A stretch of 64,000 nucleotides of DNA from Candidatus Kerfeldbacteria bacterium RIFCSPLOWO2_02_FULL_42_19. Lineage in GTDB: Bacteria > Patescibacteriota > Patescibacteriia > HO2-48-17. The notes under the pieces are model-generated. The model worked only from the letters and a program-made list of their open reading frames with translations. It had not been told where the DNA came from and searched no databases. The position numbers and the translations under genes were made by a program. Positions 18,775-59,718 of the stretch are shown in pieces. Position 1 is the stretch's first letter. Each line of letters starts with the position of its first letter. The stretch spans positions 3,853-67,852 of the forward strand of contig MHKF01000010.1 in NCBI GenBank assembly GCA_001818315.1, in the 5' to 3' direction.

Positions 18775-18967
18775 GTTGATCTTGAAAAAAATAAGTGAAA
18801 AGAGATGATGGAATATCTATTTTCATTTACTTTTTTCTAAAAAACGATGAGGATGGACGAGCTTTGTTGTGTAGCAAAACTCGTCCATCAGATACAAGCA
18901 GTAAAAGGTCAAAATTTCAAAGTCAGGATCAGGAGTTCACATGTTCGCGAGTTTAGCGCATGGTCCG

Positions 18968-21665: not shown

Positions 21666-22175
21666 GATCCTCCTTGTCTTGAATGTAGTGTTGTATTCGA
21701 ATCCGTTTCTTGCAAAAAGACGAAAAATTCTGACCAAATTTTCGATGTGCTACAGGCTTTTAGCCTGAATACTTGCGTTCTCTCCTTGCGACACACATAT
21801 TCATTCTAAAAACCTCTTCATTCTAAAAACCTCCGTCCTTATAATGCAGTGCCTCTCTCGTCGCAATTACCGAAAGAGCCACCTCTTTTGGGTGGCTCTG
21901 CTTATTTGATTCTTACTGAAACTTTATGCATTCATGCGAAACGTCAAATAAGAAAGCCACCGGCGAAGTACAAGGGTAACAATAATAAACGCCTTGACAT
22001 ACCAGTCATGACAACGCATATGAAATTGTTGTGTGGCTTTACTTATCATAGGAAAAAATCATTCTTCATCATCCACAAACTAGTGTGTAGTGTAAGATCG
22101 AGCAATTTTTTTGTCAAGCAAAGCTGGCAGAATTCGGGATTTTTTTATTTTTAAGGATTGACAAGAATGATAGCA

Positions 22176-22253
22176 GAGCAGAGAGGAAGATTATATTTTC
22201 GAAGCACTTACAGGGCACAGTGTGCTTCGAAAATATAATCTTCCTCTCTGCTC
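22176..22253. repeat. long perfect palindrome (32-bp arms, 14-nt centre), member of a recurring hairpin family
   Basis: gagcagagaggaagattatattttcgaagcac / gtgcttcgaaaatataatcttcctctctgctc; the centre contains gcacagtgtgc. Confidence 0.8.
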
Positions 22254-23135
22254 GCTCATCACTTTCTTCTGCAATTCGAAAAATTACAACGCAACAAGTC
22301 TCATAAAATAATAGAATCCTCCTCAAAAAGCACGAGTACATTCGATGTGCTTCCGAAGAGGATTCTCAAAAAGGGACAGAATGCCCAGACGAATCTTCTA
22401 CAAACGAGAAACTCGTCCTTCAGGAGTTGAATCCAATCCATGAATAGGGGATCTCCGCGGACGTGCGACGTGCATCAGGTGCGACGTCTTTCTTTGTTGC
22501 CACCTCTCTCCGTTCCTTTGCCTCAGCTTCCGCCGCCTCCCGAGCCCGCAACTCCTGCAAGTATTCTGCACTCGGTTTCCACAAATCGCCGGACATCAAT
22601 TCGTAACTCAAAACGGTTAACAGCATCTTCTTTATCTCCCTTTATTTCAGTTCAAAAAATTTGCAGCGGGCGAGACATAAAACTCAACAGACCTCGACTC
22701 CACTCGCCCAAACAGCGCTCCTCCAAAACACTTGTAAATATCAGCGCTCTTTGGACAAGTTGAGACATTACTCCTCCACACCCCAAGAACGAAAAACACC
22801 GCTTACTCGCGGTGGCTATGATTTGCGTAAACTTTGAATGGAATCTTCTACATCCTATACATGCTACGCATACGAGCCACCGGAACAATAGGGAGTACAA
22901 TAAAAAAGTAAACAACGCTCCAGATATTCTGGAGATGTCCACGACCTACCTTATGTGTGACTTGTATATGCATGGAAATAAAGATAGCAACGAAACTCAT
23001 TCTTGTCAAAATGCACAAAAAATTGTGCTTATTCATGAATATCCCCTTATTATAGAACCTTTGAGTCTCTTTCCATGGATAACGAAGTAGCGTTTGCCAG
23101 GCCAGAAGGTGATCTTATAACCACCATCCTGGGCT

Positions 23136-24719
23136 TCAGAGTATTCCCACTTGGCGAGATACCCCTTGTGCTTTCAAGTCTTCGAGAGCTGGATTGAGTT
23201 TCCGTTGTATAGCTGAAAGGAAGTGGTAATTTGCAATATCCAATTCATTGCATAGATCAGCATAGAGTTTGCTGACAGGCCTGCCATTGCTGGCATAGAA
23301 CATAGTATCGAGCATAGGATAGAGGACTATAATGGACTGGAGAAGTTGGACAGGTATATAAGATGGAAAAACTGGTATAATAATGTATATGAAAAAAACA
23401 TTCAGTCCTGAACAGAAAGCAGCGGTTGTTCTCGCTGCGATCAAAGGAGAACAAAGTATCAATCAGATCAGCTCTGCTTTTGAGGTGCATCCCACCCAGA
23501 TCGGAGTGTGGAAAAAACAGGCTCTTACGGGAATGAAGGACGTATTCTCTGACAAGCGTAGAAAGCAGCATCAAACCCAGGAACAGAGCTCATCGCAGAA
23601 CTGTACAAAGTGATCGGTCAGCGAGACATGGAACTGACCTGGCTTAAAAAAAAGCTTGAGCCATTTACCGCTTCCGGCTAGACGAGAATTCGTGGATCGT
23701 AACGATGCTCAGGTGAGCCTTGCCCGGCAAAGCCAGCTCCTTAATATTTCACGCAGCAGTCTATAGTATCAGCCGTTCATGAATACCGCTGATGTCACGG
23801 CCATGAACGCTCTGGATGAAATCTACACCCGATACCCTTTCTACGGTTCCCGGCGCATGAAATATGAGCTCAGGAAGGGGTATGGCATGAGCATCTGTCG
23901 GGAACACATTCAGCGCCTGATGCGTCAGATGGGACTTACCTCTCTTTACCCAAAAGAAGCCAAAAATCTCAGTCATCCGGATCAGCAACACCGTCGCTAT
24001 CCTTACCTCCTCAAAGACATCACGGCGCAGTATCCCAATCACATCTCAGGGTACGGACATCACCTACATACGACTGGAAAAAGGTTTTGTTTATCTTGTA
24101 GTCCTGCTGGACTGGTTTTCCCGGTACGTTGTTGCCTGGCAGGTATCGGAAAATCTGGACATGAGTTTTTGTACGGAGAATCTGCAGCGAGCGCTCAAAA
24201 ACGCCGTGCCGGATATTCACAACTCTGACCAGGGTAGTCATTTCACCTCACCCTGTTACACCGGACTTCTTACGGCCAACAACGTTCAGATCAATATGGA
24301 TGGCCGAGGCAGATGCATGGACAATATCTTTACCGAAAGGTTGTGGCGTACGGTCAAGTATGAAAATGTCTATCTCAAATCCTATGCCACGTTCCAGGGA
24401 GCTCAACAGGGATTGGCCGATTACTTCCGATTCTACAACACCAAGCGTCCACATCAGTCACTGAACAACATCACACCGGAAAAGGTTTACTGTCAAAAAA
24501 TCAAACCGTGAATTTCCTTCACAATTTAATTTCCAGACACTATCTTCTATCTCTCATATTCCTGTCTTGATAAAGCAGTCCACCTTATGGTACCATTCCT
24601 TGCCGTAAGTGTTCCACCTGTTTCGTCGATGGTTTCCTGAGGTGGTAGGAATGGACAACTCGGAGAAAGGATGAATGAAATAATGCAAACAAAAATCCAC
24701 GAAAATAATCCCTGCTTCA
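23136..24719 (-). pseudogene. small secreted-protein gene split by the IS3 insertion
   Basis: N-terminal part (24719 down to 24583) encodes MKQGLFSWIFVCIISFILSPSC, a signal/lipobox-like sequence. The C-terminal part resumes at 23332..23136. The IS lies between the two halves. Confidence 0.4.
23333..24582 (+). mobile_element. IS3-family insertion sequence, inactivated copy
   Basis: Imperfect terminal inverted repeats TGGACTG...GACAGG at both ends. orfA HTH at 23383..23613, its leucine-zipper part in another frame. A AAA AAA G slippery site at about 23646. orfB carries an in-frame stop at about 23758 and a frameshift near 24045, but keeps DDE-type motifs (DITYIRLEKGFVYLVVLLDWFSRYVVAW, HNSDQGSHFTS). 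No target-site duplication identified. Confidence 0.75.
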
Positions 24720-25358: not shown

Positions 25359-26720
25359 CTACTTCAACTTCTTCAACCGCTTTTCGATTTCTTCTTCTGT
25401 CGGCAGCTTCGTCCTATACTCCGCCACAAAAATCTTTTCTTCAAGTCCACCGAGGGCGTAATGCACCTCTTCTTTGTTGCGTTCCTCGCAGATGATAAGG
25501 CCGATGGGATCACGTTCCCAGGGCCGTTTTTCGTGTTCTCGAAAGTAGGTGAGGTATTTGTTCATCTGCCCGACATGAGCATCCTTGAATTTTTCGTTTT
25601 TGAGATCCACCACAACGAGACACTGGAGATCCCTGTGGTAGAAAAGGAGGTCAATGGTATGATAGCGGCCTGCAATGAGGAGCTTGACCTGTTGACTGTT
25701 GTTCGGGTACATATTGCACTCCTGAGGTTGATAAGGTAATTGATAAGCGTTGGTTACCAGGTAGTTCTGTATGTGTTGCACCGGGGTTTTGAGGTTGAGA
25801 GCGTGATGCGGCCGTTCGGTGTTGTGCCAAATGAGCTGTTTCATCAGACCAAGGTTAAAATGAGTGGGGTTGAGGAGTTCTGAAGCATGAAAATCCATGT
25901 ATTCATCCTGAATGGTTCTGTTGAATCTTTCGGCATAAGCGTTCATCTTGGGGGTTTTGGGATAGGTATGCCAGTGTTCTTTGTGGAATTTCCTGACCTC
26001 TTGATCAAAATGTTTCATAAATTCAGAGCCATTATCGGTAAGGATATACTTCAGTTCAAACGGAAACAGGAATCTCACCATGGCAAACACCTCTTTCGCT
26101 GCAGCTGAAGCGTGACTTACCGTGGCAAAGGCAAAGGAAAAGCGTGAATACAGATCCGTGAAGGTGATGACATAGCGCCGGGATCCATGAATGATCTTTT
26201 CCACGGTATCAAACGCGCCACAGTGTCCGGGGTACTGTGCTTGAAAATCCTTGGGTTTTCTGGCTCTTTTGACTCGTTTTCTGGGAACGATGTCACCGTT
26301 GTGACGGACTTTTACGGGGAATGTCCTGAGTCCACCCATATCCCTGATGAGATTACCAATGGTGGAAACCGAGGGACAATCAAGTTTCTTTTCCGAACAG
26401 AATCTGAGGAGAAAGATGTATATTTTCTCTTTGCCAAGATTGGGATGTTCGTTGCGAAGGCGTTTCATTTCAGTTTTGATTCCCCCTGGCCATTGCCGTG
26501 TGCGGAGATGTTTTGGTCTCCGGGACTGCTCATTGAGCGCCGTCAGCTTTCCACCACCTTTCTTTTCCTGAGATTTCCACCAGTACAGTGTCCTTTTCTT
26601 TACCGCAAAGGCTTCCATCGTAGCCTCAATGCCGTATTTTTCCCAGAATACGAGTATCCGAGCCTTGCTTTTGGCTTTGTCAGATACCATACGCTCATAC
26701 CGTATGGCATAGTCTGCCAA
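25359..26720 (-). CDS. IS481-family DDE transposase fused in frame to a DUF1016/YhcG-like PDDEXK nuclease C-terminal domain
   Basis: DDE integrase core (ILTDNGSEF, AYAERFNRTIQDE). The last ~110 aa (DLLFYHRDLQCLVVVDLKNEKFKDAHVGQMNKYLTYF...GLIICEE...YALGG) match the DUF1016 nuclease core. Confidence 0.65.
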   Translation of the reverse strand: MADYAIRYERMVSDKAKSKARILVFWEKYGIEATMEAFAVKKRTLYWWKSQEKKGGGKLTALNEQSRRPKHLRTRQWPGGIKTEMKRLRNEHPNLGKEKIYIFLLRFCSEKKLDCPSVSTIGNLIRDMGGLRTFPVKVRHNGDIVPRKRVKRARKPKDFQAQYPGHCGAFDTVEKIIHGSRRYVITFTDLYSRFSFAFATVSHASAAAKEVFAMVRFLFPFELKYILTDNGSEFMKHFDQEVRKFHKEHWHTYPKTPKMNAYAERFNRTIQDEYMDFHASELLNPTHFNLGLMKQLIWHNTERPHHALNLKTPVQHIQNYLVTNAYQLPYQPQECNMYPNNSQQVKLLIAGRYHTIDLLFYHRDLQCLVVVDLKNEKFKDAHVGQMNKYLTYFREHEKRPWERDPIGLIICEERNKEEVHYALGGLEEKIFVAEYRTKLPTEEEIEKRLKKLK

Positions 26721-26806: not shown

Positions 26807-27286
26807 ATGCAGGGTCCGATGGTTGCGATGGGTTCTGGGGAACAGGAGGGCAGGATGCGTAACGCCCACACCTACCGTAAGTGGCGCGCGTGGAACGTCG
26901 CCTGCGTGCTGTTGCGGGAAGAAGAAAACCGCCTGATCACGAGAGTAGATACCCAACCAAAAAACGATTCTGATGAACTTGCCGAGAGAGAACAACGCCG
27001 GCAGCAAGACATCACCGAAGAACAGCGTTCTTTGGAAGCCCTCGCTCAGCAGAGGGAAGCGTTGTTCAAAACGCTGAGCGAGGAACAAAAAATTGTTTTT
27101 TCAGAGAGGATGAAAGGCACAAAAAACCCGGAGATCATCAAAAAAGTCCAAGTTCAATTACGCAACGTTCGATTGCGCAATGTTTCTAAGGTCGTCTGCG
27201 ACATCAAGAAAAAGATCAAGAAGCTCGGATACATCGAGCTACTCTCGGATCTCGATGACCGCAGGCGATACAAGAAAACGCTCTGA
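26807..27286 (+). CDS. hypothetical protein with possible C-terminal HTH
   Basis: ORF ends inside a long hairpin; weak resemblance to sigma-70 region 4-like HTH (LSEEQKIVFSERMKGTKNPEII). Confidence 0.3.
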   Translation: MQGPMVAMGSGEQEGRMRNAHTYRKWRAWNVACVLLREEENRLITRVDTQPKNDSDELAEREQRRQQDITEEQRSLEALAQQREALFKTLSEEQKIVFSERMKGTKNPEIIKKVQVQLRNVRLRNVSKVVCDIKKKIKKLGYIELLSDLDDRRRYKKTL

Positions 27287-27337
27287 AACCCAAAGCACGG
27301 ACAGGTTTTTCCTCTCCGTGCTTTGGGTTTCAGAGCG
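27279..27337. terminator. 23-bp perfect hairpin followed by a T-rich tract
   Basis: cgctctgaaacccaaagcacgga / tccgtgctttgggtttcagagcg with a 13-nt loop, then ttttccgcttttg. Confidence 0.5.
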
Positions 27338-27683
27338 TTTTCCGCTTTTGAGTAGGAGATAGGTTTTCCACTCCAACGGCGCAACCACCGACCTCAAGTC
27401 TTCCTCTGTACACTCGATCCAGGCTTCGAGGAAGGCTTCGATCTCTTCCACCCGCTCCGCCAGCCAGCGAGTATCCATTCCAGCAATGATCGCTTCTTCA
27501 CGCTGATTGCCCCCGGCAGAAGGACAGCGCCAGAGAGGAATGATGGGACGTGCGGCGATGCCTTTGGGGTTGTGAGGTATTTGGGGTATTTTCTTACCCT
27601 CCTGCCCCAACCTCTCGAAACCTTCGACTGAATAAGATGAGATACATCGTGTGCACTTGAGAAAGTAAGCAATCTGGTAGGAT

Positions 27684-28763
27684 ATGAGCAAGAATCATTA
27701 TTTCTGTTCATATATGCCTCAAGCCTACGAACCCTATCGAAAAGCACTGAAACGTGAAGCTTCGGTGATTGATCCGTATGACCTCTGGCGAAAGACTGCT
27801 CTCACTTTGAAGCTTTCAAAGGCAGCTTGTCTCCGTCTGGAATGGATGATCTATTACTTCACGACGGCCAAGGAGAACGGTGCTCTGGTATCCCGTCATT
27901 TTGGCCTGCATCGCAATACCTTCGGCAAGTGGCTCAGGAAATTTGATCCAAACAACCTTCGAAATCTGGAAAGTCAGGGTACAAGGCCCCGGCGTGTACG
28001 TAAACGTCAGGGCATCTGGGCCAAGGATGAACGCATTATCTCTTTACGAAAAGAGTATCCTTGTTGGGGGAAGAAAAAGCTCAAAGTTCTGTATGAGCGT
28101 AGGTATCAAGAAACGATCACAGAATGGTATATCCAAAGAGTCATTGAAGACTATCATCTGTACTTCCGGAAGAAGAAGAAAAGAATCTCAAACAAGCGAA
28201 AAACAGGCCAGGTAAGGAAAAGAATCACCGAACTGACTACCACCAAGAAAGAGACGGGATTCCTTCTCCACTTTGATTCCATCATTCTTCAAAAAAACAA
28301 CCAGAAGCGTTACATCATCACCGGCATTGATCATCATTCTCGGTTTGCCTATGCGTGGATGTACAGCAGACATAACTCCCAAACAGCTGAGGATTTCTTA
28401 CGAAAGATATTCTTTCTCCTGAATAACTCTGTTCAGAACATCCACACCGACAATGGTTCAGAATTCAAGAAATACTTTGAAAAAGCTGTACAGAAGCAAC
28501 AACTTATCCATTACTGGTCCCGACCGAAAACCCCGAAAGATAATCCCATCAATGAACGGTTTAACCGTACCCTCAAAGAGGAGTTCCTGCATTGGGGAAA
28601 CTACCATCCTGATCCACATATTTTTAACAGGAACCTTACTTCATGGCTCATCACCTACAATACCATCAGACCCCATGAATCACTCAATTTTTCAACCCCT
28701 TTAGAAGTTGCTCAAAAGTCCTACCCATTGCACACGAGGTGGTCATCCTGTACATCGACTTGA
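27684..28763 (+). CDS. IS481-family DDE transposase (second, diverged copy)
   Basis: N-terminal HTH region; DDE core HTDNGSEF and PINERFNRTLKEE. Confidence 0.7.
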   Translation: MSKNHYFCSYMPQAYEPYRKALKREASVIDPYDLWRKTALTLKLSKAACLRLEWMIYYFTTAKENGALVSRHFGLHRNTFGKWLRKFDPNNLRNLESQGTRPRRVRKRQGIWAKDERIISLRKEYPCWGKKKLKVLYERRYQETITEWYIQRVIEDYHLYFRKKKKRISNKRKTGQVRKRITELTTTKKETGFLLHFDSIILQKNNQKRYIITGIDHHSRFAYAWMYSRHNSQTAEDFLRKIFFLLNNSVQNIHTDNGSEFKKYFEKAVQKQQLIHYWSRPKTPKDNPINERFNRTLKEEFLHWGNYHPDPHIFNRNLTSWLITYNTIRPHESLNFSTPLEVAQKSYPLHTRWSSCTST

Positions 28764-29582: not shown

Positions 29583-31426
29583 TCTCAGAGCCATTGTGTG
29601 ATATCACCACAAGAGCTTCTTACCCCACACTCTGCGCAAAATCCGTCCACTTCACACCAATTTCATTTTTGCCTAGCGATGTGCTGTAAGAAAAACTACT
29701 GCTGAAAAACCGGCTATTTGACAATTTAATCAACGCATGAAAATGCAATTATAGACCGAATCTCTTCTCGTACACAATCATAATCACGACATTACGAAGT
29801 GTTTATGATTCAACAAGCAAGAGCATATGGTGGATGCCTAGACATGCAAAGCCGATGAAGGACGTAGCAGCCTGCGATAAGCTTCGGGGAGGTGGCAAGC
29901 AACCTTTGATCCGAAGATCTCCGAATGGGGAAACCCTTCCGATAGAAGATCGGAAATCATGCACTGAATTCATAGGTGCATGAGGACAACCTAGTGAATT
30001 GAAACATCTTAGTAGCTAGAGGAAAAGAAAGAAATTATCAATACTTTTCTATAAGATTGGCGCACGCCAAAAGCGAATGCGCTCCTTATAGAAAGGTATT
30101 GCGATTCCCTGAGTAGTGGCGAACGAAAAGGGAGCAGCAAAAACCTTTACAACGTACTCTAACTTCGTGTTAGGGAGAGAAGTGATACGCTGCTGTTATA
30201 AAGGTGTTGTGAGAGACTTACGTTTGGAGCGTATTGATCCAAGATAGAGTTTAACAAACAAAATACTTAGAAGAACGCCGTGGAAAACGGAGGCCATAGA
30301 AGGTGACAGCCCTGTATTTAAAAAGTGTTTTGTACTCTATGGTAGGTATTCTCGAGTACCATGGGACACGTGAAATCCTATGGGAAGCCAGGTCGACTAT
30401 GACCTAATGCTCAATACTTTGCATGATCGATAGTGAACCAGTACCGTGAGGGAAAGGTGAAAAGCACCCCGGAAGGGGGATGAAATAGTATCTGAAACCA
30501 TATGCTTACAGAACGTTGGAGGGCTATGCCTCGCAAGAGGAATGCCTCACAGCGTGCCTATTGAAGAATGAGCCAGTGAGTTCGTAGGTAGAGTTCGAAT
30601 AAGTCCTACGGGACGTATTCAGAGTGAAAGCGAGCGTTAAAAGCGCGATCATCATTAATAATGCGCAAGCGAGTTGGTTACTCAGTTTACTGAGTGATCG
30701 CACATTCGCCAGCGCTTATTGGTGATACGATTCTACTTACGAGACCCGAAGCCGTGCGACCTACCCATGACCAGGGTGAACCCCGATGAAGATCGGGGGG
30801 AGGCCCGAACCCGTGAGCCGTGCAAAACTCTGGGATGAGTTGTGGGTAGCGGAGAAATTCCAATCGAGCTCGGCGATAGCTGGTTCTCCTCGAAATAGCT
30901 TTAGGGCTAGCCTTGTTAATTCCCCTTTGGAGGTAGAGCACTGGATGGGTTGGGGTGGCTTTTTGCCTACTCAATCTAACCAAACTCCGAATGCCAAAGG
31001 ATGTTATAACAGGAGTCAGACCGTGAGGGCCAAGCTTCACAGGTCAAAAGGGAAACAGCCCAGATCGCCATCTAAGGTCCCAAAATTGAGGTTAAGTGGA
31101 GAAGGTAGTGCTATGGCTTATACAACTAGGAGGTTGGCTTAGAAGCAGCCATCCTTTAAAGAAAGCGTAACAGCTCACTAGTCGAGTCATTGCGCGCCGA
31201 AGATGTAACGGGGCTCAAACCTCGTACCGAAGATGCGACTTCGGTATGCGAAAGCATACTGAGGGGTAGAGGAGCATTCTGTATCCGATGAAGTCGTACC
31301 GAAAGGAACGGTGGAGGATACAGAAGAGAGAATGCTGGTATGAGTAACAAAAAGACAGGTGAAAACCCTGTCCACCGTAAACCCAAGGTTTCCTGGGCAA
31401 CGCAAATCGTCCCAGGGTGAGTCGAT

Positions 31427-31460
<34 letters not shown>

Positions 31461-31961
31461 GAGCAGGTTAATATTCCTGCACTACCGTGCTGTTGTTTCA
31501 CCAGACGCATATTCCAATTCTGAACATTATTTGGCTACTGATGTCTCAGTGTTTCACGCAAGTGGAACATCGAGCGAGGGAGAGTGGAAACACAATCCCA
31601 AGTCAGAAGTAAGATGTGCCAAGAAAAAAAGTGAAACGCGTGCAGTGCGGTAATCGTACCGGAAACCGACACAGGTGGGTGGGTGCGAAATGCACTCAGG
31701 TGTACGAGAGAACCTTCGTTTAGGAACTAGGCAATACAACGGCCGTAACTTAGGGATAAGGCCTGCCCGATCGCCGAAAGGCAATTGGGCCGCAGCGAAA
31801 GACCTCAAGCGACTGTTTATCAAAAACACAGCTCCCTGCTAAACCGTAAGGTGATGTATAGGGGGTGATGCCTGGCCAGTGTCCGAACGTTAAGGGGAGG
31901 GGTGCAAGCCTCGAACCGAAGCGCGGATGAACGCCGGCGATAACTATAATCGTCCTAAGGT

Positions 31962-32662
31962 TAAACGCTTTTTAGCTAAAATAAGCAAAAGAGTGTTTAA
32001 GGACTGGGACGATTATATATCAAACGCTGCCTCGTTTTGCAGCAATGTAAAATGGTCAAAAAAAATGTGGCTATATGCTGGAAAATCTTATAAAATACTA
32101 GGGTTAGAATAAACCATAGTTATGAAATGAGATAATCAGCAGGAAAGGCCAGAAGTAATTGGATGGATTACCGGATTTGTAGATGGTGAAGGATGCTTTT
32201 CAGTAAGTATCATCCGGAACCAAACGACAAAGCTCGGTTGGCAAGTATTTCCTGAATTCGTCGTAACACAAGGAGAAAAAAGTAAAAATCATTGAATCTA
32301 CTCAAAAATTACTTCGGATGTGGAAGTATATATAGAAACCGAAGACATGATAACCACACAGAAGATCTCCTTAAATACTGCGTACGATCACAAAAAGAAA
32401 TAAGGAAAAAGATCATCCCCTTCTTCGATAAAAATTCACTCAGAACAGCAAAAGCAAATGACTTTAGGAAATTCAAAAAAATCCTAGAGCTCATGGAAAA
32501 GAATGAACATAAGAATATGAAGGGTTTAAAAAAAATTGCCATCATCATTCAAACGATGAATCGAAAAATCCCATCAAAACTACTGGAATCCTCAGAGACT
32601 ACACGCCATACCCCTTCTGTTAAGAAGGGTGAAGATATAGTCCGGACTCCAAAGGAAGTCAG
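31962..32662 (+). mobile_element. group I intron in 23S, at the position equivalent to E. coli 1917, with a degenerate LAGLIDADG homing endonuclease ORF
   Basis: Exon junction cctaaggU | ... G | agcgaaattcc restores the conserved 23S sequence. Internal ORF pieces contain ITGFVDGEGCF (LAGLIDADG motif 1) and LLKNYFGCGSIY, but there is no start codon and a frameshift lies between them. Confidence 0.7.
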
Positions 32663-32684
32663 AGCGAAATTCCTTGTCGGGTAA
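32131..32684 (+). pseudogene. LAGLIDADG homing endonuclease remnant inside the intron
   Basis: Two frames are needed: ...GWITGFVDGEGCFSVSIIRNQ...QGEKSKNH* and then MNLLKNYFGCGSIYRNRRHD... The first segment has no initiation codon. Confidence 0.55.
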
Positions 32685-33216
32685 GTTCCGACGTGCACGA
32701 ATGGCATAACGACTTGAGGACTGTCTCAACGAGGGACTCGGTGAAATTGCATGGCCCGTGAAGATGCGGGCAACCCGCAGCTGGACGGAAAGACCCCGTG
32801 GAGCTTTACTACAGCTTGGCATTGATTTAGGATTGCGTTTGTTCAGTATAAGTGGGAGACTCTGAAGTCCCGACGCTAGTTGGGATGGAGTCGCCAATGA
32901 GATACCACTCTTATGCGATTTTAATTCTAACTCCTACCCGTGAATCCGGGGGGAGGACAGTGTCTGGTGGGTAGTTTGACTGGGGCGGTGGCCTCATAAA
33001 GAGTAACTGAGGCGTTCACAAAGGTTGGCTACTCCGGGATGGAAATCCGGAGGATAGTGCAAAGGCAAAAGCCAGCTTTACTGCAAGGGGAACATCCCGC
33101 GCAGTCACGAAAGTGGGACTTAGTGATCCGACCGTTACGAGTTTTAAGTACGCAAGTACTTGGGACTCTCGATATAGGACGGCGGAAGCTCAACGGATAA
33201 AAGTTACCCCGGGGAT

Positions 33217-33496
33217 ACATACTCTGTGTCCCTTTCATTCGGTAACGAATGGAAATAGTATACGGCTAATAACGGTGAAGCTCTCTTCGCATACATCGAA
33301 TGCGAAAGAGTAATACCGTGGGAAGTCCTCCGACACCATGTCAGAGTGACCCCGTATCGACTGAGAGCGAGAAACAATACAGCAATAGAGCTCGAGATTC
33401 TGGTTAAATCCCAGAATAATACGCCGTACTCCCGATAAAAATCGGGATGAAGATATAGTCAGTGCCTTAAGGAAACTTAAGGAAGAAAATAACACG
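33217..33496 (+). mobile_element. second, ORF-less group I-like intron in 23S, at the position equivalent to E. coli 2449 (peptidyl-transferase loop)
   Basis: Removing 33217..33496 restores ccccggggaU | aacaggctg, the conserved GGGGAUAACAGGCUG. The 5' exon ends in U and the insert ends in G. Confidence 0.55.
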
Positions 33497-33536
33497 AACA
33501 GGCTGGTAGCGCCCAAGCGTCCATAGCGACGGCGCT

Positions 33537-33571
<35 letters not shown>

Positions 33572-33607
33572 CGGTGCAGAAGCTGCCAAGGGTTTGGCTG
33601 TTCGCCA

Positions 33608-33642
<35 letters not shown>

Positions 33643-34143
33643 CGAGACAGTTCGGTCCCCTATCCGCTGTGGGCGTTGAAACTTGAGAAGGCTCTTCCTC
33701 AGTACGAGAGGACCAGGAAGAACAGACCTCCCGTGTATCGGTTGTCCTGCCAAGGGCATTGCCGAGTAGCGACGTCTGGTTAAGATAAACGCTGAAAGCA
33801 TCTAAGCGTGAAGCTGTCTTCAAGATAAGGTTTCGTTTGAGGTCCCCGGAAGACTACCGGGTTGATAGGCTCTACGTAGAAGCGCGGTAACGCGTGAAGC
33901 GAAGGAGTACTAATAGACCGATGTTGAATCATATTCACTTTGTGGTGTTGTGAAACACCCTTCGAGAAGAGATTAACAGCATTTTCATGCGCAAAAATAT
34001 TTCGTATTCCATGGCACTCCGACTTGTGTCCACTTTCATAGTTATTGGTATTCTCACGACGCTCATTCTACTCACAACAGAAACAACTATCGCGGGACTC
34101 TAGGAACCCAGAGTGGAAGTCACTATCCAAAGTGACTCTTACT

Positions 34144-34251
34144 CTGGTGCTTCTAGCGACGGGGAAACACCTGTTCCCATCCCGAACACAGCCGTTAAGC
34201 CCGCCAGCGCCGATGATAGTGCCACAAGCGTGAAAGTAGGTCAGTGCCAGG
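34144..34251 (+). rRNA. rrf: 5S rRNA
   Basis: cccatcccgaacacag, gccgatgatagtg, and terminal helix ctggtgc/gtgccag. About 210 nt downstream of the 23S. Confidence 0.8.
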
Positions 34252-34261
34252 ATTATCAAGA

Positions 34262-37945: not shown

Positions 37946-39379
37946 ATGTTCACTCGAAAACAAAATCTGCAAAAAAATACAGTAAGTCCAAAATATAAAG
38001 TGCGTCGCAAACACATCATACGCATACTCACATATGGAACACTCACGAGTCTGCTTGTGATAGTATTTGCAGGATGCGGAGAACGAATAACGCCTCCAGA
38101 AAAAGTTGAATTAGAATACTGGGGCGTGTGGAATGAAAAAAGCGAAATCCAAAAAATTATTACCGACTTCAATGCGAAGTACTCGCATATCAGTATCAAA
38201 TATCGCAAGCTTCGCTACGAAGAATATCAAGATCTGCTACTCACTGGTTGGGCGCAAGACAAGGGACCAGATATCTTTGCCATACAAAATTCCTGGGTAG
38301 GAGCATACAAAAACTTCATAGAGCCGATGCCGCAAAGCATGACGGTGAAACGGAAATACATTAAAGAAAGTTTTGCTGGCGCAAAAAAAGATGAAGTTGT
38401 GGAAGAAGTAAAAATTCCAGGATACGACGCACGAACACTCAATCAAAAATTCGTTCAAGTTATGGTGGACGACGCGGTCATTAATAACCAAATCTACGGT
38501 CTTCCACTCAGTATCGATACTCTTGCCATGTACTATAACCGAGATCTCCTCTCGCAAGCGCAAATCACGCAACCTCCTACACTTTGGTCAGAATTTATAG
38601 AGATCATCCCTCGATTAACTCTTCTCGACCAAGATGGAAATATTATCCGATCTGGTGCTGCGATGGGCGCTACACAGAATGTAGATCGTGCGGTAGATAT
38701 TCTTGCGAATCTCATGCTGCAAAACGGAACAAATATTGTAGAAGAAAAGAGAGTTGTGCTTACACAGGAATCGGCAACACAGAAGGGATACTACCCCGGA
38801 CCACGAGCACTTGAATTCTATACTGACTTTGCAGTACCAACCAAACAAGTGTATACGTGGAACGAAAATATGCCAAATTCATTAGAAGCCTTTGCACAAG
38901 GACGAGTCGCATTCTTTTTTGGTTACGCCTATCACCTTCCACTCGTCCAAGCGCAAGCGCAGGGAATCAACTTTGACATCGTAAAATTCCCGCAAATTGA
39001 TACAAATCGGACTGTGAACTTTGCCAATTATTGGATTGAAACTGTAGCAAAAAAAAGTGAGCACCAGAACGAAGCATGGGCTTTTCTACAATTTGCAACG
39101 GATGAGGAAAATGTGATTCCTTTTCTAGAGAAAAGTAAAAAACCAACAGCCTTGTTATCGCTCATTACATCACAAGTAAGTGAAAATCCGATTCTTTCAC
39201 CTTTTATCATTCAAGGCCTGACGGCAAAAAGTTGGTATAGCGGACGCAAACCAGTTGAAGCTGAAGCAGCGCTTGAAAACGCTATCCAAAAAATTCTTGC
39301 CAAGGACGTGCCTGAGGAAGGCGACCCCTATGCAAAGGTGCTCCAAGACGTAGCAAAAAAAATTCAGGGAACACTATGA
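37946..39379 (+). CDS. ABC transporter substrate-binding lipoprotein (sugar-type, family 1-like)
   Basis: Lipobox VFAGC; size and composition of extracellular solute-binding proteins. Confidence 0.6.
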   Translation: MFTRKQNLQKNTVSPKYKVRRKHIIRILTYGTLTSLLVIVFAGCGERITPPEKVELEYWGVWNEKSEIQKIITDFNAKYSHISIKYRKLRYEEYQDLLLTGWAQDKGPDIFAIQNSWVGAYKNFIEPMPQSMTVKRKYIKESFAGAKKDEVVEEVKIPGYDARTLNQKFVQVMVDDAVINNQIYGLPLSIDTLAMYYNRDLLSQAQITQPPTLWSEFIEIIPRLTLLDQDGNIIRSGAAMGATQNVDRAVDILANLMLQNGTNIVEEKRVVLTQESATQKGYYPGPRALEFYTDFAVPTKQVYTWNENMPNSLEAFAQGRVAFFFGYAYHLPLVQAQAQGINFDIVKFPQIDTNRTVNFANYWIETVAKKSEHQNEAWAFLQFATDEENVIPFLEKSKKPTALLSLITSQVSENPILSPFIIQGLTAKSWYSGRKPVEAEAALENAIQKILAKDVPEEGDPYAKVLQDVAKKIQGTL

Positions 39380-39888
39380 CACGCCTAGCAAATCCACAAC
39401 CAAATATCCTCAAGAGTTGCAGAAGGTTTACACTCATACTCATCGTGCTCGGGATTCTCACATTCACAATACCTTTTGCTGTGAAAGCGCAAGGAATTCT
39501 TCCCGAATGTGCACTTACACAACAAGATCCTGCCACAGCATGCGGTTATTGTGATTTTATTAAACTCGCTGTGAACGTATCGCGCCTGGGACTTGGAATT
39601 CTTGGCGGCGTAACCCTTGCCTTCTTCGGTTGGGGTGGACTCATGTTGCTTTTATCCGCCGGCAACAGAGAAAAAATAAACAAAGGCTGGCAAATTCTGC
39701 TTGGTGCGATGATGGGGCTTGCGATCGTCGTACTTGCATGGACAATGGTAAACTTTATCGTGTGGGCACTTGTAAGTGGAGAAATAAACACGATCGGCGA
39801 TGTAAAAATTTTTCCAACTGATGCCAATCTCAACTGGTGGGAAGGGCATTGCACTCAAAATGCCAATACTCCAACACCTCAACCATAA
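39376..39888 (+). CDS. TrbC/VirB2-like (T4SS-pilin-like) small membrane protein, paralog 1
   Basis: Shared motif LAFFGWGGLMLLLSAGNREKINKGWQILLGAMMGLAIVVLAW; two TM segments. Confidence 0.55.
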   Translation: MTRLANPQPNILKSCRRFTLILIVLGILTFTIPFAVKAQGILPECALTQQDPATACGYCDFIKLAVNVSRLGLGILGGVTLAFFGWGGLMLLLSAGNREKINKGWQILLGAMMGLAIVVLAWTMVNFIVWALVSGEINTIGDVKIFPTDANLNWWEGHCTQNANTPTPQP

Positions 39889-39919
39889 AATACATTGTAA
39901 ATAAAGTGTTTTTTATCTT

Positions 39920-40288
39920 ATGCTACATCAATATATGAAGAAGGCGAACAAAAAAAAATATACATTTTTGACTACTCTTATATTACTCGGGGTCTTAGGA
40001 CCTTTATTCCTCTCGGCACAGGGACTACCGAATCCACTTGGTGAAGTAACGGACCCGAATGAAATTATTGTGAATGTGATTAAGGCGTTTTTGGGCGTCC
40101 TCGGTGTCCTTGCACTTGTCATCTTTATTTATGGAGGGTTGTTGCTGCTGATTTCTGGAGGGAATACAGAAATGCTCTCAAAAGGGAAGAGAACACTTGT
40201 GTGGGCAATTATTGGCCTTGCTATTATTCTGAGTAGTTACGGAATACTCAAATTCGTCTTTGAAAAACTCATTACTTCCACGAGTTAA
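39920..40288 (+). CDS. TrbC/VirB2-like small membrane protein, paralog 2
   Basis: IFIYGGLLLLISGGNTEMLSKGKRTLVWAIIGLAIILSSYGI. Confidence 0.55.
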   Translation: MLHQYMKKANKKKYTFLTTLILLGVLGPLFLSAQGLPNPLGEVTDPNEIIVNVIKAFLGVLGVLALVIFIYGGLLLLISGGNTEMLSKGKRTLVWAIIGLAIILSSYGILKFVFEKLITSTS

Positions 40289-40326
40289 AAATAAATTTCG
40301 GTTTAAATCTTTCTCCTGTTGTCAAG

Positions 40327-40412
40327 AGAAGCGCGGTAATGGATCTTATACCTTTCGAAGCACTCACACTGCACAGTGTGCTGAGAAAGGTATAAGATCC
40401 ATTACCGCGCTT
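40327..40412. repeat. long palindrome (29-bp perfect arms, 28-nt structured centre), same family as 22176..22253
   Basis: gaagcgcggtaatggatcttatacctttc / gaaaggtataagatccattaccgcgcttc; the centre is ...ttcgaagcactcacactgcacagtgtgctga. Confidence 0.8.
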
Positions 40413-40451
40413 CTTACATTATGGAAAAATTATCACGCAAAAAGTCTATTG

Positions 40452-40859
40452 CTACGTCGTGGCTTTCACAATTTGATCGAATACATATTTGGCGATTCCA
40501 TAGGAAGCCATCACAATCGCAAGACCGATAACTGCCAAAACCAATCGATCACGCGCTTGGCGCATTTTTTCGGAGTTACCGCCAGAAAGCATCCAAGAAA
40601 ATCCAGCCCAAATAATCATTACGAGTGTTATAAGTCCTAAAACGCTCAACACAACACTCACAATCTTGAGAGTCACAACAACTGGAGAAGCACCGCCAAG
40701 ACCAGTCTCTGTTAAAACTGGCGACAAGGTAGGAGGGGCAGCAGACACATCATTCGTGCCACTCACAATACTGAACACGACAATAATGATGGAAAAAATC
40801 GTTGCAAGTGAAACGAAATGCCGCGGCATTGTACGTATGCGTTGTATTACGTCAAACAT
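40452..40859 (-). CDS. TrbC/VirB2-like small membrane protein, paralog 3
   Basis: MIIWAGFSWMLSGGNSEKMRQARDRLVLAVIGLAIVMASYGI. Confidence 0.55.
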   Translation of the reverse strand: MFDVIQRIRTMPRHFVSLATIFSIIIVVFSIVSGTNDVSAAPPTLSPVLTETGLGGASPVVVTLKIVSVVLSVLGLITLVMIIWAGFSWMLSGGNSEKMRQARDRLVLAVIGLAIVMASYGIAKYVFDQIVKATT

Positions 40860-40881
40860 AAAACAAAAAAATTTATAAATC

Positions 40882-41283
40882 TCAACTGCGATAGATACGC
40901 TGTATGAAAGTTGTTGCGCCAGTTGCTTTGTTCAGTTCGTTAAATACATAACTCACAATACCGTATGCTGCCATAATAATGGCAAGACCAGTAATAGCTG
41001 CAACAAGGATATCACGCGCATGTCGGAGTCGCTCGGAACTTCCAGCAGAAAACAACCACATAAATCCACCCCAGAGAATCATAACCACAGCAATGAGTCC
41101 GACAAGAGTCAAAACCAATTGAACAATTCTTAACACAACCACATCAGGTGTTAAAGTTCCAAGTTTTGCTTCATCTACAAGGATTTTCTTTATACTCGTA
41201 TTAGGATCAAAAGCCACAGCATAGGTAGCATGCAAATCTACAAAAGAAAATAAAAGAGTCATGACAAAAAATACAAAGCACAT
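40882..41283 (-). CDS. TrbC/VirB2-like small membrane protein, paralog 4
   Basis: Start placed at internal Met MCFVFFVMTLLFSFV (signal-like); the track ORF extends to 41595. Motif VMILWGGFMWLFSAGSSERLRHARDILVAAITGLAIIMAAYGI. Confidence 0.5.
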   Translation of the reverse strand: MCFVFFVMTLLFSFVDLHATYAVAFDPNTSIKKILVDEAKLGTLTPDVVVLRIVQLVLTLVGLIAVVMILWGGFMWLFSAGSSERLRHARDILVAAITGLAIIMAAYGIVSYVFNELNKATGATTFIQRIYRS

Positions 41284-41658
41284 GCGCTTGAAAAAATAAT
41301 GCGATGAAGTCATAAAGTTTAATAAAAAGTAATTAGATTTATTATACAACGTTTCTTTCAATCCGTAAAAGACACCTCGCACACTCCGATTCCGCATAAT
41401 GGGTCTGTCGCCGAATGCGCTTTCGCCTGTGAAATCGTAAAATTTCGTGACAGAATCGCTGAATAAATTTTGAGGTTTATATGGAATATAAGCTGAAAAA
41501 TTTTGAAGCGATTCTGGCCGAAATGCTACGATTGCAACAGAAATGGTATTCGGCGACAGACCCATATAGGTAAAATAACAAAAATTTGCTTGCAAAGTTA
41601 AAATATGCTATAGTCAAAAGTGACTTTAAAATTACAAGAAAGGAGGTGAAACCTCATT

Positions 41659-42030
41659 ATGACTAAACTCTTGGTAAGAGCTTCACAAATCGGTGCTGCC
41701 GTGAGTGTTTTGCTTCTTCCTGCAGCAGCGCGAGCACAGCTTACGATCGACCCATCATACGCCGGAACATTCAACCTTGGCAGTGGTTCTCCAGTAGCTA
41801 TCGTGATCGGTATCGTAAACTGGGCATTAGGACTTCTCGCGCTCGTTGCAGTAGTACTCGTGCTTATCGGTGGATTCATGTGGATGACTGCCGCTGGTAA
41901 TGAAGAAAAAGTTGATAAAGCGAAGAAGATCCTTTCCGCAGCTATTATTGGTTTGGTGATTATCCTTGCTGCTTGGGGTATTACGATCTACGCGATCAAC
42001 GTACTTGGTACAGCAACTGGTTCAGTATAA
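41659..42030 (+). CDS. TrbC/VirB2-like small membrane protein, paralog 5
   Basis: Strong SD aaaggaggtga. VLVLIGGFMWMTAAGNEEKVDKAKKILSAAIIGLVIILAAWGI. Confidence 0.55.
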   Translation: MTKLLVRASQIGAAVSVLLLPAAARAQLTIDPSYAGTFNLGSGSPVAIVIGIVNWALGLLALVAVVLVLIGGFMWMTAAGNEEKVDKAKKILSAAIIGLVIILAAWGITIYAINVLGTATGSV

Positions 42031-57122: not shown

Positions 57123-57197
57123 AGAGCCCTCTCTGTATATATCTTCTCAAGTGACTTTTCCATGTCATCTCGAGAAGATATATACAGAGAGGGCTCT
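57123..57197. repeat. 26-bp perfect inverted repeat with 23-nt spacer between divergent gene starts
   Basis: agagccctctctgtatatatcttctc / gagaagatatatacagagagggctct. Confidence 0.8.
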
Positions 57198-57257: not shown

Positions 57258-59195
57258 ATGAAAAAAACAATATTTTTTTTATTACTTTTCTTCTACGCGT
57301 TTCTTTGGATAACGCTTTTTTTACTCGCAATTTTTTACAATAACCATACACTGCTCATTACATTTCTCGATAACAAAACCGCGTTTCCTTTCTTTCATGT
57401 ATTACAAGGAGCGAATATCAGAGCGTTGATAGACACCTTTCCAATCATGCTCACTCCGATACTCATTGCGCTCTTACTTGCTCACATCAAACAAAAGTGG
57501 GTACGAAGAGTGCTCGTCGGTATCACTGCTGCTATCACTGCCATAGTCTTTGCAATTGATATTATTCTTATCGTCTATAAAATCATCACAAAGCTTGATT
57601 TTGACTTCCGTCTCTTCTGGTATAATTCCTCGGTCATTGCAACGACTATTTGGCGCGTTGCACCCTTAGCAACATGGGCACTTGCGGAAGCATTTTTTTT
57701 CCTGATCGTATTTTGGTATGCTTTTCTCTCTGTATTATCGCAAGCGCCACGACCAAAAAAAAACTCTGTAGCCCTCCTTACGATCCTTATTTTAAGTTTC
57801 ATCATACAAGGAGTAACGTTTCATACTCAGAGAGAAGCGTTTACGCATTTTCTCTATTCTATAGTCCGCTATAAACGTTCCATTGGTACCTATTACGAGC
57901 GTAAATATAATGAGCACATACAAAAACTCCTGCAACAAAATAATATATTTGGAGAAAACAAAATTCCAAAACCTCTCGGTGAAAATATATTCATAGTGCA
58001 ACTCGAAAGCGTCTCAAGTCTCGTGGTAAACGAAAAAATTACTCCAAACCTCACTGCAAGCGCAAAAGAGGGAATCTTATTTCCAAACTTCTATTCCAAT
58101 TCAGTCCAAACTATTCGAGCGGAAGAATCCATCCTTTGTGGACTTCCACCTACGATGCATGTTCAGCTTATGCGCAAACTCGCACTTGAAAATATAGCGC
58201 GACTCCCTTGTCTTCCAAAACTACTGCAAGAACTCGGATATCAGACTCTACTTTTTGACGATTTCTATGGAGGATTTGAAGAAACAGATACTTTTTTAAA
58301 AACGATCGGTTTTCAAGAAATGCATGGATATGACATTATGCAAAAAAATGATCCAAAAACATCATGGGGGTATCGAGAAGACGAATTTTTCCAAAGAGTG
58401 CTCGAATATCTTGCACAACACCCGAGCGACAAACCACGCTTTGTGTACATCACCGTAAGCGCCACAAATCACGCGCCTTTCGACATTGATGAAAAAACTT
58501 TCAGCGCACGCCTTCCTTATCCCAAAGGCGATACGATAGAGCAAAAAGCAGCGAATGCGACTTTTGTCCAAGATGCATATTTAGCTGATTTTCTTAAAGA
58601 GTTTGGAAAAGAATATGCTGAACAAAGTTCGCTTTTTATTCTCAGCGATACATCTTGGCCAGTACCGATCCACGGTAATATCTATAACCTCGTCGGGGCC
58701 TATGAAGAAAATTTTCTCATCCCGATGGTGTTTATGCCAGCAAAAAGCATCCAAGAGACTTTTGCGACCGACAAAATTGTGCAGGAACGATTCGAACAAA
58801 TAGACATACTCCCAACTATCCTCCATCTCATAAACGGCAAGGCCCCGTCCGAATTCTTGGGTCAATCGCTCGTATCTGTCCTTCGCAAAGATAGCACAAG
58901 CGAACCCGCATCGTGGAAACTCTCTTTGCAACCCTATGATGGCGGATATATATCGCTTGTGCGCTTCCCAGATAAGTATCTCTTTAACCTCACAGAAAAC
59001 ACGGTCACACGATATAAGCTCGATAGCGACCCCCAAGAAAGAGCCCCTCTCGGCACGGAAAAACCCGACGCATTCCTACCTCTTATTGAGAATTATTTTT
59101 TAAAAAATACCAATGTCTCAACAAACGCCACATCAACATCGTCTGACTCAAAGGATGAAGTATCGAAGTCAATTTCTGAAAGCATTCCTCAGTGA
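57258..59195 (+). CDS. LtaS/sulfatase-family (alkaline-phosphatase superfamily) membrane enzyme
   Basis: N-terminal multi-TM region, then an extracytoplasmic domain with VQLESVSS and SATNHAPFD motifs. Start set at MKKTIFF with an AAGGA SD, downstream of the palindrome. Confidence 0.6.
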   Translation: MKKTIFFLLLFFYAFLWITLFLLAIFYNNHTLLITFLDNKTAFPFFHVLQGANIRALIDTFPIMLTPILIALLLAHIKQKWVRRVLVGITAAITAIVFAIDIILIVYKIITKLDFDFRLFWYNSSVIATTIWRVAPLATWALAEAFFFLIVFWYAFLSVLSQAPRPKKNSVALLTILILSFIIQGVTFHTQREAFTHFLYSIVRYKRSIGTYYERKYNEHIQKLLQQNNIFGENKIPKPLGENIFIVQLESVSSLVVNEKITPNLTASAKEGILFPNFYSNSVQTIRAEESILCGLPPTMHVQLMRKLALENIARLPCLPKLLQELGYQTLLFDDFYGGFEETDTFLKTIGFQEMHGYDIMQKNDPKTSWGYREDEFFQRVLEYLAQHPSDKPRFVYITVSATNHAPFDIDEKTFSARLPYPKGDTIEQKAANATFVQDAYLADFLKEFGKEYAEQSSLFILSDTSWPVPIHGNIYNLVGAYEENFLIPMVFMPAKSIQETFATDKIVQERFEQIDILPTILHLINGKAPSEFLGQSLVSVLRKDSTSEPASWKLSLQPYDGGYISLVRFPDKYLFNLTENTVTRYKLDSDPQERAPLGTEKPDAFLPLIENYFLKNTNVSTNATSTSSDSKDEVSKSISESIPQ

Positions 59196-59718
59196 CAGAA
59201 ATGTTGCGTCGCTCACTCCAACATCACGCATAAGCGTCCAAAAAATTTGCAAAAAAATAGATTTCGAACGTGACAGAACGATCGTTGAGTTTGGCCCGGG
59301 TGATGGAGTATTCACCAAATACCTCCTCAAACACATGACACCAGCTTCACGAATCATCATTTTCGAAACCAATAAAAGTTTTATCAATGAACTTGAAAAA
59401 ATTGCTGACCCGCGACTCATAATACTCCACCAAAAGGCTGAAGAGTTCACAAGCGCATTCAAAAACATGGGTATTCAATCAGTTGATTATGTACTCTCGG
59501 GCATTCCATTTAGCTTTCTCAAACCAACAAAACGTCTGCAATTACTTCACGATATAGCAAAGGCGCTCAAACCAGAAGGCAAAGCGATTATTTACCAAAT
59601 TTCGCCGCTGCTCCTTCCCTACATTCAGAAGGTGTTTCCTTATCGCAAATATTCACTTGCCTGGCAAAACATTCCACCCCTTACGATCTTCGAGGCCTGG
59701 AAGCATTCAAAAATCTGA
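59155..59718 (+). CDS. class I SAM-dependent methyltransferase
   Basis: Motif I IVEFGPGDGVFT; overlaps the upstream gene end. Confidence 0.6.
   Translation: MKYRSQFLKAFLSDRNVASLTPTSRISVQKICKKIDFERDRTIVEFGPGDGVFTKYLLKHMTPASRIIIFETNKSFINELEKIADPRLIILHQKAEEFTSAFKNMGIQSVDYVLSGIPFSFLKPTKRLQLLHDIAKALKPEGKAIIYQISPLLLPYIQKVFPYRKYSLAWQNIPPLTIFEAWKHSKI

Follow-up and report, generated by a model that had tools for sequence, protein, structure and literature searches.

What are the three very long palindromes that lie between genes in the genome of Candidatus Kerfeldbacteria bacterium RIFCSPLOWO2_02_FULL_42_19, and what has kept their arms paired while the sequences of those arms diverged? The question is raised by a 64,000-nucleotide stretch of contig MHKF01000010.1 (assembly GCA_001818315.1, positions 3,853 to 67,852 of the forward strand), hereafter the window, in which a first-pass annotation made from the sequence alone had recognized three hairpins with a conserved core. 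It had offered three explanations, namely a lineage-specific element resembling repetitive extragenic palindromic (REP) sequences or miniature transposable elements with inverted repeats (MITEs), a recombinase or nuclease recognition hairpin, or a structured RNA. Our analysis gives the first of these a probability slightly above one half (about 55%): the three sites, here S1, S2 and S3, would each form the central hairpin of a MITE-like DNA repeat, and these repeats would make up a non-coding, fully palindromic family restricted to one lineage. We consider this reading the most economical because it brings together the inverted ends shared by elements with different interiors, the AT-rich 5-bp flanks, the dispersal of copies in both orientations, the presence of remnants, the restriction to one lineage and the Watson-Crick pairing of both strands.

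Three hairpins inside longer inverted-repeat elements

Recomputation of the arms and folds located the hairpins where the first-pass annotation had placed them. S1 (22176-22253, minus strand) pairs its arms 22176-22207 and 22222-22253 at 32 of 32 positions around a 14-nt loop, and S2 (40327-40414, minus strand) pairs 40327-40363 with 40378-40414 at 35 of 37 positions, of which 30 nt are perfect and two mismatches (TTCGAA opposite TGAGAA) lie beside the loop. In S3 (59737-59812, plus strand), 27 Watson-Crick pairs (59737-59763 with 59786-59812) enclose a 22-nt centre, inside which the fold adds a few pairs. All three belong to what we call the A-type and score 88, 88.6 and 83.8 bits, respectively, with R1, a covariance model built from nine copies of the family. 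Folded as single-stranded DNA they reach -35.7, -39.9 and -33.3 kcal/mol, compared to about -6 to -8 for dinucleotide shuffles, which corresponds to z values of -14.6, -14.4 and -14.0, with none of 200 shuffles folding as well.

Read in a common orientation, the three centres share one asymmetric 22-nt core, RCACACTGTGC-NN-TGT-N-AGTRC, flanked on both sides by TTCGAA except in S2, where one side reads TTCTCA. The small palindrome previously described as the common centre is present, but the full shared unit is this longer asymmetric core, and the statement that every arm ends in tttcgaa is accurate for five of the six arms, the right arm of S2 having TGAGAA instead. The motif CACACTGTGC occurs exactly once per site, on the minus strand in S1 and S2 and on the plus strand in S3. 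In S1, the core CACACTGTGCCCTGTAAGTGC reads on the minus strand within an apical module (TTCGAA-core-TTCGAA) at 22198-22231, the corresponding module of S2 spans 40354-40387, and the S3 core ACACACTGTGCAGTGTTAGTAC occupies 59764-59785 between copies of TTCGAA at 59758-59763 and 59786-59791.

These hairpins, 76-88 nt in length, are the middle of longer elements rather than whole ones. In four long forms found on metagenome contigs (L008, L009, L005a and L006, named after their contigs), the palindrome extends to about 160-190 nt and is bounded by terminal inverted repeats of about 34 nt, GGGWCTGTCGCCGAATAC-NN-TTTC..., which are intact on both sides in L008, L009, L005a and a sibling element of the window described below, while L006 retains one end and has the other decayed (nhmmer E 1e-7 to 1e-10). 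Inward from the ends, variable outer arms are followed by a central hairpin of about 90 nt, the base of which is often an A-tract paired with a T-tract, and the tip consists of a conserved asymmetric module of about 40 nt, CTTTCTCAG-CACACTGTGC-NN-TGT-N-AGTGC-TTCGAAAG.

The ends of S1 to S3 have decayed; homology to the long-form outer arms can still be recognized on either side of S1 and S2, where most of the complementarity has been lost. The whole S1 element is placed at approximately 22118-22303 (minus strand) by alignment to the long-form copies and comparison with S2, with bounds accurate to about 10 nt; its outer arms are still homologous to the long-form ends, with GAGACTTGTTGCG... at 22291-22303 and GCTGGCAGAATTC at 22123-22135. 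The S2 element, likewise with estimated bounds at approximately 40289-40447 (minus strand), occupies the entire spacer of the convergent pilin genes 39920-40288 (plus) and 40452-40859 (minus). S1 and S2 share one 30-nt outer block that is around 80-85% identical, and their distal inner arms are almost unrelated. Shared terminal inverted repeats and a small non-coding body (160-190 bp when intact, as in L008, L009 and the sibling element at 41401-41563, with only spurious open reading frames) are both features of MITEs.

Immediately outside the GGG ends lie AT-rich 5-mers in direct orientation, namely ATAAA/ATAAA in L009, ATAAT/ATAAT in L006 and CTTAT/TTTAT in L008, with less perfect pairs in the element at 41401-41563 (ATAAT/ATATA) and in L005a (ATAAA/CGAAG). 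In addition, TTTAT/TTTAT borders a remnant that has suffered heavy deletion (L079 9229-9271), and excision of this remnant together with one repeat leaves a perfect 20-nt palindrome, CGCCGTTTATATAAACGGCG. The direct repeats are thus perfect in three of six elements, match at four of five positions in one and at three and two of five positions in the other two, and all flanks are close to one AT-rich consensus. A 5-bp target duplication at an ATAAW target is suggested by this pattern, which is suggestive only, since chance matches between flanks that resemble a single consensus are frequent and the excess over them is small. A 12-nt direct repeat, TATCGCCGTTTA, is common to the L079 remnant and the sequence on its left; it is too long for chance and suggests a microhomology-mediated deletion or conversion during truncation of the element.

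Elements with other interiors or loops are also present. The C-type element at 41401-41563 bears the same inverted ends of about 34 nt (GGGTCTGTCGCCGAATGC... and ...GTATTCGGCGACAGACCC) as the long A-type, with a different internal hairpin (41451-41516) that lacks the CACACTGTGC core, and a second C-type copy runs from position 1344 of L009 onwards. A B-type sibling hairpin at 57123-57197, with 29-nt arms that are 97% complementary and the loop ACTTTTCCATGT, scores 35.7 bits with R1 and sits between divergent gene starts; a second copy in the same genome is found at L005 1537-1612, which equals L082 16528-16603. Read directly from the sequence, a D-type hairpin (22313-22366, minus strand) stands directly outside the left end of S1 and reaches only 12 bits with R1, having the same closing stem (GAAGCAC...GTGCTT) and a different 13-nt loop, ATCGAATGTACTC. 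An E-type hairpin is located at L079 20008-20174.

Several of these elements meet gene calls or one another. At two positions, 57162 in the window and 16476 in L082, the start codon of a gene has been called within a B-type hairpin or upstream of one; the sulfatase affected at 57162 is called with 677 or 645 amino acids in different strains, and the pseudopilin on L082 is called with 249 amino acids even though a prepilin-like N-terminus, MPVKSTFGISLLEI..., begins after the hairpin, at 16610. The repeats have probably misled the annotation in both cases. The called start of the pilin gene 40882-41565 is overlapped by the C-type element, which sits at the extreme 5' end of that gene as called. 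A half copy at L005 6795-6850 (corresponding to the L074 11696-11724 region), inverted beside L005b, consists of the left arm and the first 12 nt of the core followed by unrelated sequence, which suggests a nested insertion or a rearrangement with a break inside the core. Pairs of uptake sequences, like the DNA uptake sequences of Neisseria, were considered for the ends and rejected, the GTCGCCGAATAC end being found only twice in 64 kb and hence far too rare.

Dispersal of the family within one lineage

The covariance-model search proposed by the first-pass annotation, together with an exact scan, extended the family beyond the window. The exact core pattern, CACACTGTGCNNTGTNAGTNCTTC, was found in metagenome contigs of the Joint Genome Institute (JGI) in six copies on five stretches only, and it had no match in 185,579 GTDB species genomes; viral contigs, scanned with the pattern shortened by its final TTC, had no match either. 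A tenth copy (L079 2335-2427, hereafter L079a) was recovered with R1, having a slightly different core (CACACAGTAC...) and, again, unrelated arm sequences. The A-type copies therefore number ten, namely S1, S2, S3, L005a, L005b, L006, L007, L008, L009 and L079a.

Exact protein look-up traced five of the six JGI copies, on contigs L005 to L008, to the species of the window, while the 1.4-kb contig L009 was assigned to it via its source metagenome only, which is also that of L007. By locus tags A3B74_00825, _01555, _01700, _03135 and _03230, whose A3B74_* proteins are those of Candidatus Kerfeldbacteria bacterium RIFCSPHIGHO2_02_FULL_42_14, six of the seven extra copies are in the genome of the window. 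Exact matches to window proteins occur in groundwater assemblies from the Rifle aquifer, including the metagenome-assembled genomes GCA_001818755.1, GCA_001818735.1 and GCA_001818335.1. The unbiased density is three copies in about 71 kb and, with the copies found by searching, ten in about 146 kb, so that A-type copies occur about once per 15-25 kb of the sequence read, in addition to the sibling types. Their neighbours (rpmA, pyrG, an M32 peptidase, a sigma-70 factor, TrmB, PMT, GH57 and pilins) are mutually unrelated, and the many dispersed copies, ten A-type plus the B, C, D and E types in about 146 kb, are what is seen in MITE families.

Outside this species, R1 had no match in the 604 kb surrounding a homologous gene that were taken from 38 other Patescibacteria, and long hairpins are absent from a syntenic contig of 16 kb whose source, a relative with 47% protein identity, is too distant to define a precise empty site. 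Altogether, the extra copies, the absence of R1 matches elsewhere and the hairpin-free syntenic relative indicate that the family is real, dispersed and, as far as the searches reach, confined to one lineage. The first-pass annotation had itself named two outcomes that would speak against a family, that only its three copies existed, with no covariation beyond chance in a larger alignment, or that they were parts of one duplicated region; more copies exist, and the second outcome is ruled out by the unrelated flanking genes.

There is virtually no chance, in our judgement, that the family is unreal and the sites are coincidental palindromes, fragments of a single duplicated region or artefacts of assembly. 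Assemblers do have trouble with palindromes, and S2 is where several contigs end, one with an odd variant of it, but the fold z values are about -14, the hairpins are identical in seven to 12 independent assemblies (from ENA, JGI, NCBI and Logan), the flanking genes are unrelated and the covariation over ten copies is strong. The variant in question lies at a contig end (L014 10406-10487, equivalent to S2) and consists of the left arm, the loop in inverted form with a single base change, and a right arm that is exactly complementary to the left one; either part of the population carries the product of an inter-strand template switch, or the assembler has produced an artefact. Other contigs, such as L017, also stop at the S2 hairpin, and L011 has one uncompensated arm substitution in S2. 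When each arm was searched (blastn-short) in about 150 kb from the same genome and its relatives, only its own partner arm was returned, and a role of the arms as guides or antisense sequences was rejected on that account.

Pairing of the arms, gene context and what they imply

The claim of a conserved core with covarying arms was borne out by an alignment of the ten copies with 38 stem pairs, evaluated against 500 shuffles. Standard pairs fill 92.9% of the stem cells, as against 74.5% after partner shuffling, and when the partner is slid by one to three columns pairing falls to 41-53%. Changes on both sides of the pair affected 26 of the 38 pairs, in 71 cells, a result reached in 0 of 500 shuffles, while the left distal arms are only 26-89% identical between copies. 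By cell counts, the pairs include 347 Watson-Crick, 6 G.T and 10 A.C combinations, with no excess of G.U over A.C, and the compensations are divided between 34 of the transition type and 36 of the transversion type (36/70). A transversion-type compensation cannot pass through a G.U intermediate. Because there is no sign that wobble pairs are tolerated on one strand and half of the compensations are of the transversion type, the pairing points to DNA rather than to RNA.

Two further features of the stems bear on how arm identity arises. A 2x2 pyrimidine internal loop near the tip (TTCTCAG opposite CTTCGAA) is present in seven of the ten copies, including the very diverged S2 and L079a, and S1 and S3 have a perfect TTCGAA/TTCGAA there. 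A one-base bulge in the right arm is present in six of the ten copies and has been resolved in the other four, by an extra base in both arms (S2 and L005b) or in neither (S1 and S3). Template switching within quasi-palindromes yields perfecting by matching insertions and deletions of this kind, and this pattern suggests it as a route to arm identity in this family.

All nine A-type copies of known context lie about 0-60 nt from a stop codon, four between convergent genes (S2, S3, L005b and L007), five between tandem genes (S1, L005a, L006, L008 and L079a) and none between divergent genes. Gene calls agree with the earlier placement of S2 and S3 between convergent genes, those of S3 being 59113-59718 (plus) and 59831-61396 (minus). 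In the tandem contexts, the core is in the sense orientation twice and antisense three times.

Such a position just past stop codons, with no copy between divergent promoters, is what a structured RNA would show, whether a bidirectional intrinsic terminator, a 3'-end stabilizer or an independent small RNA, possibly with a protein-bound tip and possibly coexisting with a mobile origin through exaptation. Bidirectional terminators likewise stand just past stop codons, often between convergent genes, and the base of the stem pairs an A-rich run with a T-rich run in about seven of the ten copies, as it does in them. Besides, ordinary terminator-like sites are not enriched in the genome (27 found compared to 21.5 expected), the inner stem is perfect while the outer arms decay, and the pyrimidine internal loop has been retained in most copies. 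Against this, three of five tandem contexts have the asymmetric core antisense to the genes on either side, G.U and A.C combinations stand at 6 and 10 with half of the compensations of the transversion type, S1 and S2 have no T-tracts, and a B-type sibling occupies a divergent promoter region. The stems, of about 30 bp or more and moderate G+C, are far longer than termination needs and than the 5-14 bp of intrinsic terminators, which also lack a 22-nt loop sequence common to copies at unrelated genes and outer inverted ends. No Rfam family matches the hairpins: a scan of the window at gathering scores returned only rRNA, tRNA and a group I intron, and permissive scans returned only sub-threshold matches to generic hairpins (miRNA precursors and the plastid psbA 3' untranslated region). 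We regard a structured RNA as an unlikely account of the family. The earlier suggestion of selection on structure, taken in an RNA sense, is not favoured by the base-pair counts, the transversion half or the mixed orientation of the core.

Pairing that is Watson-Crick only and free of orientation bias also fits folded single-stranded DNA, and a recognition hairpin for an enzyme acting on it, such as a REP-associated tyrosine (Y1) transposase (RAYT) acting on REP sequences or their REPIN doublets, another HUH nuclease or an attC-type integrase, would be compatible with these data. An invariant tip on a variable paired stem, functional on either strand, is the design of rolling-circle origins, REPINs and attC substrates, and the family shares it. 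Yet no Y1_Tnp, Rep or integron-integrase domain is present among the Pfam assignments in the ~146 kb read, the stem lacks the conserved GTAG found 5' of it in REPs, a cassette array is absent, and the classical terminal inverted repeats with AT-rich flanking repeats are not made by such systems. No IS200/IS605-like gene, for which the first-pass annotation had proposed a check of association, was seen in the same ~146 kb. Taken together, these points make a recognition hairpin of this type very unlikely. Retron msd, integron attC, oriT and rolling-circle origins were each rejected, as the copies are dispersed beside housekeeping genes with no reverse transcriptase, integrase or relaxase nearby.

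A palindromic repeat family in a streamlined genome

Among known systems, the closest likeness is to the Correia/NEMIS elements of Neisseria, the ERIC/IRU elements of enterobacteria and YPAL of Yersinia, which are fully palindromic, non-coding bacterial MITEs of 100-170 bp that are co-transcribed and act as terminators or RNase III substrates. As in those families, the elements described here have terminal inverted repeats, form one long hairpin over their whole length, do not code for protein and are present as many dispersed intergenic copies near gene 3' ends, in both orientations and with subtypes that differ in their interiors. They differ in having no sequence similarity to those families, in flanking repeats of about 5 bp and AT-rich composition rather than TA, in central stems that are exceptionally long and perfect, in old copies that keep the asymmetric central tip best rather than the ends, and in their host, a genome of the Patescibacteria or Candidate Phyla Radiation (CPR).

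[quoted passage not shown] The outermost 12 nt agree with the Tn3 repeat at 10 of 12 positions (GGGTCTG.CGC), for which the fixed-register chance is about 3.5e-5 in a comparison chosen after the fact, whereas the complete Tn3 38-mer agrees at 16 of 38 positions, without similarity past the first 12 nt and without the inner TAAG. The Tn3 38-mer used for this comparison occurs at 100% identity in more than 5000 plasmids and sits beside blaTEM. A blastn search of the end against 72,556 plasmids gave no match. TIMEs are usually single-copy, unlike this family with at least ten copies in one genome, and they are recognized by few copies and a Tn3-family transposase, of which no DDE_Tnp_Tn3 domain is seen in the Pfam assignments of the loci read. 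The family is not a demonstrated TIME, because the end match stops at 12 nt, the plasmid search was empty and the copies are multiple.

REPINs are REP doublets moved by RAYT transposases, and they resemble the family in being lineage-specific, abundant, dispersed intergenic hairpins whose arms co-evolve to stay paired. The two differ in that the arms here are not two copies of a short imperfect palindrome and are accompanied by long terminal inverted repeats and flanking direct repeats; no GTAG-type REP motif is found in the alignment and no Y1_Tnp (RAYT) domain in the ~146 kb read. Similarly, the R and L boxes (GTTRRRY) of integron attC sites are absent from the alignment, and the copies are solitary with no integrase nearby.

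On the MITE-like reading, the elements would have spread by means of a transposase supplied in trans that recognizes the terminal repeats, inserting into AT-rich 5-mers (ATAAA or ATAAT) with duplication of them, and would have survived at harmless locations, shortly after stop codons and in the spacers of convergent genes. The outer parts of an inserted element would then decay, which is the state of S1 to S3, with the central palindrome still paired. Since pairing is Watson-Crick on both strands and bulges were resolved by matching insertions or deletions, arm identity may be kept mainly at the DNA level, with template switching inside the palindrome (quasi-palindrome correction) as the likely route. 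A second force may be selection by the host for stable hairpins at the 3' ends of transcripts, as bidirectional terminators or stabilizers, and the invariant tip is probably a protein recognition site.

Several observations weigh against this reading. In the ~146 kb read, no transposase gene is flanked by these ends, and the transposase fragments that are present (IS3-like, rve, IS110-like and DDE_Tnp_1) do not carry them. Neither an empty site nor a presence/absence polymorphism was found, S1, S2 and S3 being in all of the seven to 12 strain contigs and the nearest relatives being 47-67% identical in protein sequence. The flanks of the same element match at 19 of 25 positions over five elements, compared to about 15 of 25 for mismatched pairs, both by hand count. 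Moreover, decayed copies keep the central tip best, whereas a simple selfish MITE is expected to conserve its ends, and this conservation of the tip points to a function at the host or protein level. The well-conserved tip, the position at gene 3' ends and the A/T-tract stem bases leave room for a secondary host role or a protein-binding tip alongside a MITE-like origin. In a stronger version, which we hold to be rather improbable, the tip with its pyrimidine internal loop would be the docking site of a hairpin- or cruciform-binding protein, and the arms would be kept perfect by a coupled active process.

The surroundings of the elements include further mobile and repeated DNA. S1 lies within 1.7 kb of non-coding sequence that adjoins transposase debris of the IS3-like and rve types; this cluster (23383-24511, 25359-26690 and 27684-28763, with the fragments called differently among strains) comprises a broken IS3-like pair (HTH_Tnp_1, HTH_21 and rve_3), an rve/IS240-like gene and a 443-aa protein in which an rve integrase core is fused to YhcG_C (PD-(D/E)XK nuclease-like). 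An unrelated very long hairpin at 27274-27342 has 32-nt arms that are 97% complementary around a loop of 5 nt (z = -12.7). Beginning at the stop codon of a 159-aa gene and located 340 nt upstream of the rve-type transposase gene 27684-28763, it is possibly the end structure of that insertion sequence. Five paralogues of a type IV secretion system (T4SS) pilin (PF18895/TrbC) stand in a row at 39376-42030, with S2 and the C-type element in their spacers.

Elsewhere in the window, an AT-rich hairpin (21% G+C) at 18779-18840, between two genes on the same strand, scores 20 bits with R1 and is probably an ordinary intergenic stem-loop. The 23S rRNA gene (29807-33932) measures 4126 nt compared to the 2925 nt of the model and holds, as distinct features, a group I intron (51 bits in Rfam) and an open reading frame for a LAGLIDADG homing endonuclease; further coordinates noted for this region are 33207-33482, 32292-32684 and 34143-34252. 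A 5S gene follows the 23S gene and no 16S gene is found upstream within the window, so the rRNA operon appears to be unlinked. The T4SS-pilin paralogues and the intron-stretched 23S gene are gene content typical of Patescibacteria.

The elements are of a familiar kind, newly seen in this bacterial group: none had been described in the phylum, and our literature search found no palindromic repeat or MITE described from CPR bacteria. For annotators, model R1 and the end profile would allow the elements to be masked and spurious open reading frames or wrong start codons to be avoided, and the palindromes account for the tendency of assemblies of this population to break at these sites. The family is also a natural example of arms that diverge to 26-89% identity and still stay Watson-Crick paired on both strands, and it could be used to study quasi-palindrome correction versus compensatory selection. 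Should the tip prove to be a docking site, the family would amount to more than passive remains of a transposon: it would be a palindromic element that corrects itself and serves its host, in a minimal CPR genome, for example in connection with replication or transcription or by supplying long double-stranded RNA from which small RNAs are processed. CPR genomes are streamlined, at about 1 Mb, and are thought to be poor in mobile DNA; the family described here shows that even genomes of this kind allow palindromic repeat families to expand.

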